64,000 nt of DNA, taken from contig CAZPBG010000002.1 of assembly GCA_964584885.1 (NCBI GenBank), positions 12,718 through 76,717 of the forward strand, written 5' to 3'. This document shows positions 20,258 through 20,706 of the stretch, one piece after another. This stretch comes from an uncultured Vampirovibrio sp. GTDB lineage: Bacteria > Cyanobacteriota > Vampirovibrionia > Gastranaerophilales > Gastranaerophilaceae. Positions within the stretch are counted from its first letter, which is position 1; each line of letters opens with the position of its first letter. The notes below the pieces were generated by a model. The model did not search any database. It was not told the DNA's origin and was given only the letters and a program-made list of their open reading frames with translations. The translations under genes were made by a program, and so were the position numbers.

Positions 20258-20522
20258 CTTAATATCACCTCAAATCCACTATTTTATGATGTAACATTTT
20301 GTATAAAAAGTTACATGGGGGTAAATATAGGGAAGTGCTAAAAGCTACGTTAGATGCGATAAAGCACGGGTACGAAAAATGCCGAGCCTATCGGAACGAA
20401 TAATCAATGTTAATGAGAGAGCAACAAGCAGAGCATTGTCTGAGCGAAGCGAGTTTGCTCTGCTCAGCTCGAATTTTACAATTGATTAATGAGTGTAGAT
20501 ACAGCTCCGGGAGCTTCTTTGC

Positions 20523-20552
20523 GCTACTTTCTTGTCGGCACAAGAAAGTAGC
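20523..20552. repeat. 13-bp-stem hairpin inside the invertible segment (REP/terminator-like)
   Basis: GCTACTTTCTTGT-CGGC-ACAAGAAAGTAGC; a second stem AGCAGAGCA/TGCTCTGCT at 20427-20464. Confidence 0.7.
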
Positions 20553-20587
20553 ATGTGTTACAATTTATTAACAAATTTGATTTAAAA

Positions 20588-20627
20588 AGGCAATTTTAAA
20601 GAAAAAAATACTTTAAAAACATGTAAC
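20588..20627 (+). promoter_or_regulatory. Promoter-like motif inside the invertible segment, facing the right-hand IR
   Basis: AGGCAATTTTAAAGAAAAAAATACTTTAAAAACATGTAAC closely matches the motif at 5791 upstream of ORF 5872 and others in the window. Confidence 0.55.
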
Positions 20628-20706
20628 TTTTTATACAAAATGTTACATGTTTTGTTTGTTTTTGGATGTGAAGAGAATATATCTATGCACTTTTTTAGAA
20701 TGTGGA

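Follow-up and report, generated by a model that had tools for sequence, protein, structure and literature searches.

A candidate promoter inverton with paired 28-bp tyrosine-recombinase-type sites in an uncultured Vampirovibrio genome

Phase variation by promoter inversion is a main means of surface variation in gut bacteria. The repeats of the Escherichia coli fimS switch are 9 bp long, and in Bacteroides fragilis paralogous polysaccharide promoter invertons share their repeats and are flipped in trans by Mpi, a serine recombinase. The tyrosine recombinase RecV of Clostridioides difficile is described as being encoded elsewhere and as inverting several switches, flagellar ones included (flgB, cwpV, pdcB; PMC7446863, PMC9286219). 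According to an account of the Mycoplasma agalactiae vpma locus, the Xer-like tyrosine recombinase Xer1 acts on 5'-leader sites and moves one promoter between genes (PMC2268961), and Acinetobacter plasmid pdif modules are presented as short modules, found in both orientations, between 28-bp inverted sites with an 11-6-11 layout (PMC9947245). Here, we describe a locus of comparable design in an uncultured Vampirovibrio sp. of the Gastranaerophilales. The window, which is the whole 64-kb stretch of DNA analyzed, corresponds to G000:C2:12718-76717, and within it the segment 20318-20619 is probably an invertible promoter switch, in which two identical 28-bp inverted tyrosine-recombinase core sites bracket one outward promoter and which is OFF as assembled. 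A 302-bp segment between sites of 28/29 bases is likely to be a promoter inverton of a well-known kind; the gene it would control, P0001, encodes a predicted membrane protein.

G000 denotes the window's own genome, an assembly of 67 contigs (C numbers; 1.685 Mb, G+C 32.8%) with a completeness of 88.8%. It was compared with 98 genomes of the genus (G numbers) and with fetched loci or metagenome contigs (L numbers). Orientation at the locus itself was read from Logan contigs of four DNA runs of one study, all animal gut metagenomes, and such contig assemblies can hide minor orientation forms.

The segment is delimited by an inverted repeat whose 29-nt arms (20289-20317 and 20620-20648) are 100% complementary and lie 302 nt apart, with the coordinates and complementarity given in an earlier note on this DNA, which had been made from the sequence alone. 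No other perfect inverted repeat in the window with its arms within 1 kb is as long. The maximum in 100 first-order Markov simulations of the window was 12-20 nt, and a repeat of 29 nt is far beyond chance. Each copy reads directly as the 11-6-11 arrangement proposed in that note, ATGTAACATTT / TGTATA / AAAAGTTACAT, with arms complementary at 10/11 positions and an asymmetric centre, and the 6-nt centres of the two copies are inverted relative to each other. The pattern ATGTAAC-N14-GTTACAT, allowing at most one mismatch, has two matches in the window against 0.03 expected, and none of 100 shuffles (0/100) gave two. The parts of the locus are listed in Table 1.

Table 1. Coordinates of the putative switch, its flanks and adjoining genes (window positions).
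Feature	Position	Strand	Description
Left recombination site (putative)	20289..20316	.	11-6-11, ATGTAACATTT TGTATA AAAAGTTACAT; repeat arm reaches 20317
Right recombination site (putative)	20621..20648	.	inverted copy, spacer TATACA; repeat arm begins 20620
Invertible interior (putative)	20318..20619	.	302 bp; C11 copy 94% identical, inverted vs outer flanks
Promoter module	20556..20615	+	TGTTACAA..TTAACA element, then GGCAATT-N12-ATACTTTA (20589-20615); from alignment of copies
Nested dispersed structured element	20373..20558	+	~185 nt; copies across genus; own unitig; compensatory changes
Outer-left leader (OL)	20258..20288	-	GAGGTG at 20266-20271
Outer-right flank (OR)	20649..20708	+	T-rich; terminator-like hairpin and U tract together with right site
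ORF P0001 (gene the switch would control)	19370..20257	-	295 aa, TTG start; predicted membrane HExxH protein, distantly YugP-like
YhdP/AsmA-like gene	20707..23685	-	PF13116, 8e-13; convergent with promoter

Related sites occur elsewhere in the genus. The earlier note had proposed scanning for further ATGTAAC-N14-GTTACAT-type sites, and a related pattern, GTAACWTTTTRTAYAAAAWGTTAC (at most one mismatch), is present in 9 of the 98 genus genomes, with several copies in each and none for the reversed control. They are often arranged as closely spaced inverted pairs, with 86-302 bp of unrelated sequence in between (G090:C9, G107:C2, G105:C6, G006:C3, G090:C7, G108:C14). Their 6-nt centre varies among loci (TGTATA, TGAATA, TGTACA) but is identical and inverted within each pair, as strand exchange across an overlap region would require. 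One pair brackets a segment upstream of fliD in G090 and G108, and its sites differ from those of the window at 1 of 24 core positions. Toward fliD the two loci, G090:C9 and G108:C4, align in the same sense (902 bp at 96%, 361 bp at 90%), as do ~20 nt at the opposite end; the intervening 195 bp, which include the two sites and the segment they enclose, are inverted (85%). The segment carries TTCACA-N17-TATAAT, which faces a MatE-type gene in one genome and the fliD side in the other. As judged from these alignments, a site class near-identical to the window's brackets a predicted promoter segment in both orientations in two related genomes. The earlier claim of inverted tyrosine-recombinase-type core sites around a promoter-bearing segment is supported.

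GTAAC-type sites in relatives are found at several loci per genome, by fliD, flagellin and LysM genes. At six loci (L029, L031, L032, L033, L036 and L043, from G006, G084, G090, G002 and G108), single or paired sites of this type stand just downstream of promoters of the form TAAAGTTT-N11-GCCGTTAA / GCCGTAAT, which we take to be sigma-28-like, and precede genes for 450-494-aa LysM-domain proteins beside flagellin and FliD genes; the promoter there lies outside the site pair.

Within G000, a second full copy of the cassette occupies C11:3071-3433, 94% identical and in the reverse sense, and the 19 nt outside each of its repeats match the window's outer flanks in the forward sense (C11 3052-3100 with 20270-20316, 90%; C11 3405-3452 with 20620-20667, 98%). 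The two paralogues therefore have their interiors in opposite orientations with respect to flanks that they share and that are not symmetric. Between window and C11, the interior has 19 substitutions and the four 28-bp sites have 0. The C2 and C11 copies stand at about equal depth in the four runs, and both therefore belong to one genome.

The promoter motif at 20589-20615 faces right, away from P0001, which corresponds to the OFF state. The promoter-like motif that the earlier note saw inside the right repeat proves to be real and belongs to a 38-copy family, and the accompanying remark that it points at no gene also holds, since only the convergent 3' end of the minus-strand YhdP/AsmA-like gene (20707-23685) lies ahead of it on the + strand. 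The family was collected by searching the whole G000 genome with a spacer of N12-17 and at most one mismatch. An ORF of at least 50 aa lies within 150 nt downstream of 31 of the 38 copies, against 52% of 2000 random positions, and the ORF starts are mostly ATG at 29-57 nt. Ten of 16 proteins scanned behind the motif have no Pfam family, and the others include LysM, CHAP and outer-membrane barrel matches. The class as a whole (GGCAATT-N13-ATACTTTA, 38 copies, including window 5792-5819 and 20589-20615, mostly before Pfam-less proteins) may mark the genes served by a single sigma factor. Before the nearest P0001 homologue (G052, 40% identity), the same motif stands in a fixed position ~49 nt from the ATG, and repeats are absent. 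A simple promoter/terminator scan of 19000-21200 gave no more matches than shuffles.

The flanks of the segment are consistent with a switch that acts toward P0001. This gene starts with TTG (20257, minus strand) at a distance of 31 nt from the left arm, and GAGGTG, the ribosome-binding site named in the earlier note, is at 20266-20271. OL, which separates the left site from the start codon, is too short to hold a promoter. The 19 site-adjacent nt of OL (20270-20288) recur by sites at C11 (15/19) and at the beginning of C62; as in the window, the left-flank type of C62 is soon followed by a gene that reads outward. OR recurs at C11 (18/19), at C1:21304-21362 (88%) and at the start of C8, extending over ~60 nt at C1 and C8. 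On the + strand, the right site together with AAAAC/GUUUU is predicted to fold into a hairpin of 16 bp (-14.4 kcal/mol), which none of 200 shuffles (0/200) equals, and GUUUGUUUUU follows. Read toward P0001, the left site folds at only -7.8 kcal/mol and lacks a U tract. We infer that the flanks fit a one-way switch, terminator-like on the right only, and on our reading they would be kept with the cassette because the right hairpin would stop OFF transcripts and the left one would not.

The proposed mechanism can be set out in a few steps. A trans-acting member of a small (~180 aa) recombinase family with an Xer-like catalytic domain only would pair the two sites, and strands would be exchanged across the 6-bp spacer, so that the segment is inverted. 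By calculation, the inverted promoter would stand ~64 nt before the TTG, a distance made up of 4 nt of interior, 29 nt of arm and 31 nt of leader. In the ON state, transcription would reach P0001 after crossing the left site and its leader. In the OFF state, transcripts would end at the right-site hairpin and its T-rich flank, before running antisense into the YhdP-like gene.

No recombinase gene adjoins the window segment, in agreement with the earlier description of a switch lacking a neighboring recombinase. G000 has five tyrosine recombinase genes and one serine recombinase gene, and two of the former are of the XerC/D type (C50:123-1040 and C5:14135-14986). The only member of the small family found in G000 is a 179-aa tyrosine recombinase (C7:19463-20002; PF00589 at 8e-23). 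It matches only the catalytic domain of Xer-type models, and every match, those to FimB/E models included, falls under the family cut-off. Against NF007371 it scores 31.5 bits, and a member of an orphan clade of the family scores 44.4, where the cut-off is 222; neither NF007370 nor NF007371 is matched above cut-off, and the best matches are to Xer-type models. Its motifs GLRISD, HTLRKTF, NHSS and LTYIG presumably contain the catalytic R, H-x-x-R, H and Y. Of the 98 genus genomes, 84 encode the small family, some in as many as 10 copies, and the species-representative collection has it in 244 stretches; co-occurrence of this type of recombinase with the sites is uninformative, as the family is already in 84/98 genomes.

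Members of this family are typically accompanied by repeats. In a scan of G000 and 80 fetched loci for pairs with arms of at least 18 nt, 60-320 bp apart and within 600 bp of the gene, a pair was found downstream in 51 of the 67 loci with enough sequence and upstream in 3 of 73; shuffles gave 12/67. The median distance between the arms is 129 bp. The arms are dyads of the form xxxACATTTT-N4-AAAATGTxxx in 19/51 cases, and ACATTTT/AAAATGT is also found in the window sites; dyads of the form xTAACWTTT-N6-AAAWGTTAx occur at eight recombinase loci among 112 loci scanned. One recombinase-adjacent locus is shared by G081 and G108 with 97.6% identity across 3537 bp, apart from a repeat-bounded stretch of 189 bp that is reversed (96.8%). 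The window sites thus share the architecture of repeats beside the small recombinases, where inversion is seen between genomes. A promoter scan inside the 51 recombinase-adjacent segments was uninformative, with 37 loose sigma-70 matches forward and 37 reverse, and three of the GGCAATT class in each direction. The C7 recombinase has a candidate switch of its own (L045 2218-2405), with 30-nt dyad repeats 128 bp apart before a GT2 glycosyltransferase gene, and the orthologous switch is found in both orientations (G081 vs G108/G002). The orphan clade (at least 78% identity to G107:C2:24973-25512), which lacks adjacent repeats, occurs in seven genus genomes, five of which are among the nine site-positive ones; this association is weak, and the genomes may be close kin.

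On this comparative evidence, invertons are common in the lineage. The earlier note knew of none described for it, and in print that is largely so, since a literature search, in which subscription-journal surveys were not covered, found no published account of invertible promoters in Gastranaerophilales. A single hsdS inverton locus is given for Candidatus Melainabacteria in PMC7672463.

Several points weigh against the window segment being an active switch. The Logan contigs of the four runs span both junctions in the window orientation only, although minor forms can drop out of such data. One site of the C11 copy has a 2-bp insertion, so copies can decay; that copy has neither a P0001 homologue nor a gene at its leader, the repeat block known from window positions 19122-19335 adjoins its left flank, and it looks decayed. 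The C7 recombinase's own adjacent repeats have different arms (TTCTATACACAAT-GTAA-ATTGTGTATAGAA), and the orphan recombinase clade was not found in the G000 assembly, which is 88.8% complete. The YhdP-like gene lies upstream of P0001 on the same strand, and read-through from it could express P0001 regardless of the switch. Finally, the cassette is repeated in the genome.

The last of these points leads to an alternative that we regard as unlikely, namely that the unit is a dispersed non-autonomous repeat, either similar to a miniature inverted-repeat transposable element (MITE) or a duplicated cassette, with relic repeats that no longer invert and a promoter of fixed direction. Besides the two full copies (window and C11:3071-3433), there are three partial ones (C1:21304-21478 and the starts of C8 and C62), at least four contigs of one metagenome have site pairs that enclose one shared interior of ~125 bp, and the window's interior is itself a mosaic of dispersed modules; the single orientation in the contigs of the four runs would also fit. 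A dispersed MITE with target-site duplications was the outcome that the earlier note had set against a switch, and its first part stands, in that the 360-bp unit is dispersed and has several copies. The unit does not, however, end at its terminal repeats: homology extends 19-60 nt past them, the interior is flipped relative to those flanks, and target-site duplications are absent at 6/6 complete elements inspected (window, C11, L203, L204, L210, L211). Because homology passes the repeats and the interior flips relative to the flanks, a MITE delimited by these repeats is rejected. A frozen repeat also sits poorly with sites that are perfectly kept against 6% divergence of the interior, and with a site class that flips between genomes.

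Contig structure at the locus was inspected as well. In runs X1 and X2, contigs cover 19600-20390 and 20525-21400 with 0 differences from the window, and the contigs break at the sites because the C11 paralogue shares site and flank at k=31. A 20313->20624 joint in X1/X2 was considered as a deletion or inversion product and rejected; its 22-letter short side is the reverse complement of the contig's next 22 letters, and we read it as a fold-back tip. In JGI metagenome contigs, an exact search with the left flank and site gave no match.

A very unlikely alternative is that the segment inverts through chromosomal XerC/XerD-type recombinases acting on dif-like sites, comparable to the pdif modules. 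The 11-6-11 geometry, the 8/11 arm match counted in the earlier note, the presence of two XerC/D-type genes and the Xer-like catalytic domain of the small recombinases would all agree with it. A canonical dif-like site is nevertheless found elsewhere in the genome (TCATAATATATATTATGTAAAT, C1:35907-35928, minus strand), occurs mostly once per genome in 44 of the 98 genus genomes (at most two mismatches; one control match) and is the likely Xer target. The GTAAC-type site is present in only 9/98 genomes, and its class does not show the one conserved copy across the genus that marks a chromosomal dif. Its spacer varies between loci, and its architecture matches the repeats beside the small recombinases. 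The link to Xer and dif drawn in the earlier note is accordingly not supported, and the resemblance of TGTATA to the E. coli dif spacer carries no weight because the centre differs between loci.

Slightly less probable again is a role for the palindromes without any recombination, as operators for a dimeric DNA-binding protein or as 5'-end RNA hairpins or terminators around a regulatory region. The sites are near-perfect dyads, a good fold is predicted for the right one with its flanks, and in other genomes single sites directly follow the presumed sigma-28-like promoters at transcript starts. Such functions have no need for an identical, inverted 6-bp centre, yet this is kept in all pairs with an asymmetric centre (window, C11, L029, L034, L035, L044), and segments between such sites are found inverted. 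The least probable reading is a serine invertase acting on a 13-2-13 parse with core TA, for which G000 does offer one 199-aa resolvase/invertase-type gene (C7:29188-29787; PF00239 at 1.2e-26), but that gene adjoins a 374-aa integrase, suggesting a mobile element, the site class is positionally linked to genes for tyrosine recombinases at eight loci, and a palindromic TA core would give no directionality.

The interior of the putative promoter switch contains a nested element that is itself dispersed. In the Logan contigs it forms a separate unitig (20382-20554) at ~3x the flanking depth, and many copies are present in G017 and G007. Its predicted fold shows compensatory changes at 34 of 48 pairs in 11 copies from six genomes (window, G017, G007, G005, G019, G018), and the G-U pairs favor the + strand of the window. 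Copies lie at L187-L198 (G017, G007, G005, G019, G018) and at G000:C23:23889-24002. An Rfam scan of 19000-21500 at E<=1 returned only a chance snoRNA match (19.5 bits) and left the element unmatched. This ~185-nt element may represent a novel structured RNA or else a mobile element of Gastranaerophilales that depends on hairpins. Were it absent, the interior would measure ~129 bp, the usual size for such switches.

P0001 carries an HEMGH motif and has relatives in 89 of the 98 genus genomes, and H155, E156, H159, E231 and E232 are invariant across 15 sequences of its family. The label of zinc metallopeptidase given to it earlier survives in part: the HExxH and EE residues are invariant and three of the 15 family members match PF04298 (Zn_peptidase_2, YugP-like; best E 1.6e-4), but profile searches gave P0001 no Pfam or NCBIfam match of its own. 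No solved structure was found among its relatives, and the label is reasonable as a prediction, if weakly supported. One family member, at L076 (G100:C19), has a different 24-nt inverted-repeat pair, 187 bp apart, which ends 148 nt upstream of its start.

In the surroundings of the locus, the closest relative by YhdP gene (G001) has neither P0001 nor the element at the corresponding place. Window 19036-19380 is a patchwork of small repeats that occur dozens of times in the genome, and the hairpin at 19343-19379 is identical at C21 and C29. Contigs C8 and C62 begin in, or 31 nt from, a GTAAC-type site, C8 with the right-flank type and C62 with the left-flank type followed by a 224-aa gene, and the two starts may be the two sides of a third switch left unresolved in the assembly. 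The proteins encoded next to further copies of the site (C62, 224 aa; C11, 272 aa) show no relationship to P0001 and match no Pfam family.

Two further patterns were seen in metagenome contigs. L208 and L212, the latter reverse-complemented, come from one sample, share an upstream region and a single site, and continue into different paralogous genes (MRIKFIQDII.. vs MRIQFVQDII..), a pattern that would be the expected product of promoter swapping between loci by single-site recombination. In another case, at least four loci of one metagenome (L203, L204, L210, L211) have site pairs around a shared ~125-bp interior with two terminator-like hairpins and no promoter; these elements may be invertible terminators or a spreading cassette.

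A broader picture can be drawn from these observations, which we consider possible but doubtful. In it, the GTAAC-type sites would be nodes of a recombination network spanning the genomes of gut Melainabacteria, an orphan recombinase consisting of an Xer-like catalytic domain only and encoded apart from its targets would flip several promoter cassettes and swap promoters among flagellar cap, LysM/envelope and membrane protease genes, the cassettes would spread with their leader and terminator flanks, and the ~185-nt element would be new, mobile and RNA-like. The narrower proposal of a promoter switch at 20318-20619 has implications of its own. Promoter inversion in uncultured, non-photosynthetic relatives of cyanobacteria would extend this strategy to a lineage without genetics, in which the candidate switches adjoin glycosyltransferase, flagellar and envelope genes and one recombinase family is present in most genomes of the genus. 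The window locus would add a case without a neighboring recombinase, which points to trans-acting control, and it offers defined 28-bp sites.

The candidate switch can finally be set beside the described systems. It resembles fimS, the switch of E. coli type 1 fimbriae operated by FimB and FimE, in having a short promoter segment between inverted repeats, in its probable dependence on small tyrosine recombinases (~200 aa in E. coli) and in the predicted ON/OFF control of an adjacent gene, and most members of the lineage's recombinase family sit beside their switch, as FimB and FimE do. Unlike fimS, the window switch has no adjacent recombinase and its sites are 28-bp dyads; the C7 recombinase also differs from FimB and FimE in falling far under the NF007371 cut-off and in scoring better against Xer catalytic domains. 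As with the RecV switches, the window's site class occurs at several loci per genome, flagellar genes included, but the lineage is that of the Melainabacteria and the sites are unrelated. The difference from Mpi lies in site geometry and gene linkage, both of which point to tyrosine recombinases. The sharing of an upstream region and a single site by L208 and the reverse complement of L212, followed by different paralogous genes, recalls vpma, whereas the window locus would be a simple two-site promoter flip with no gene shuffle. The pdif modules, in turn, are XerC/D sites on resistance plasmids, whereas the window sites are chromosomal, bracket a promoter and have a link to Xer that is unsupported.

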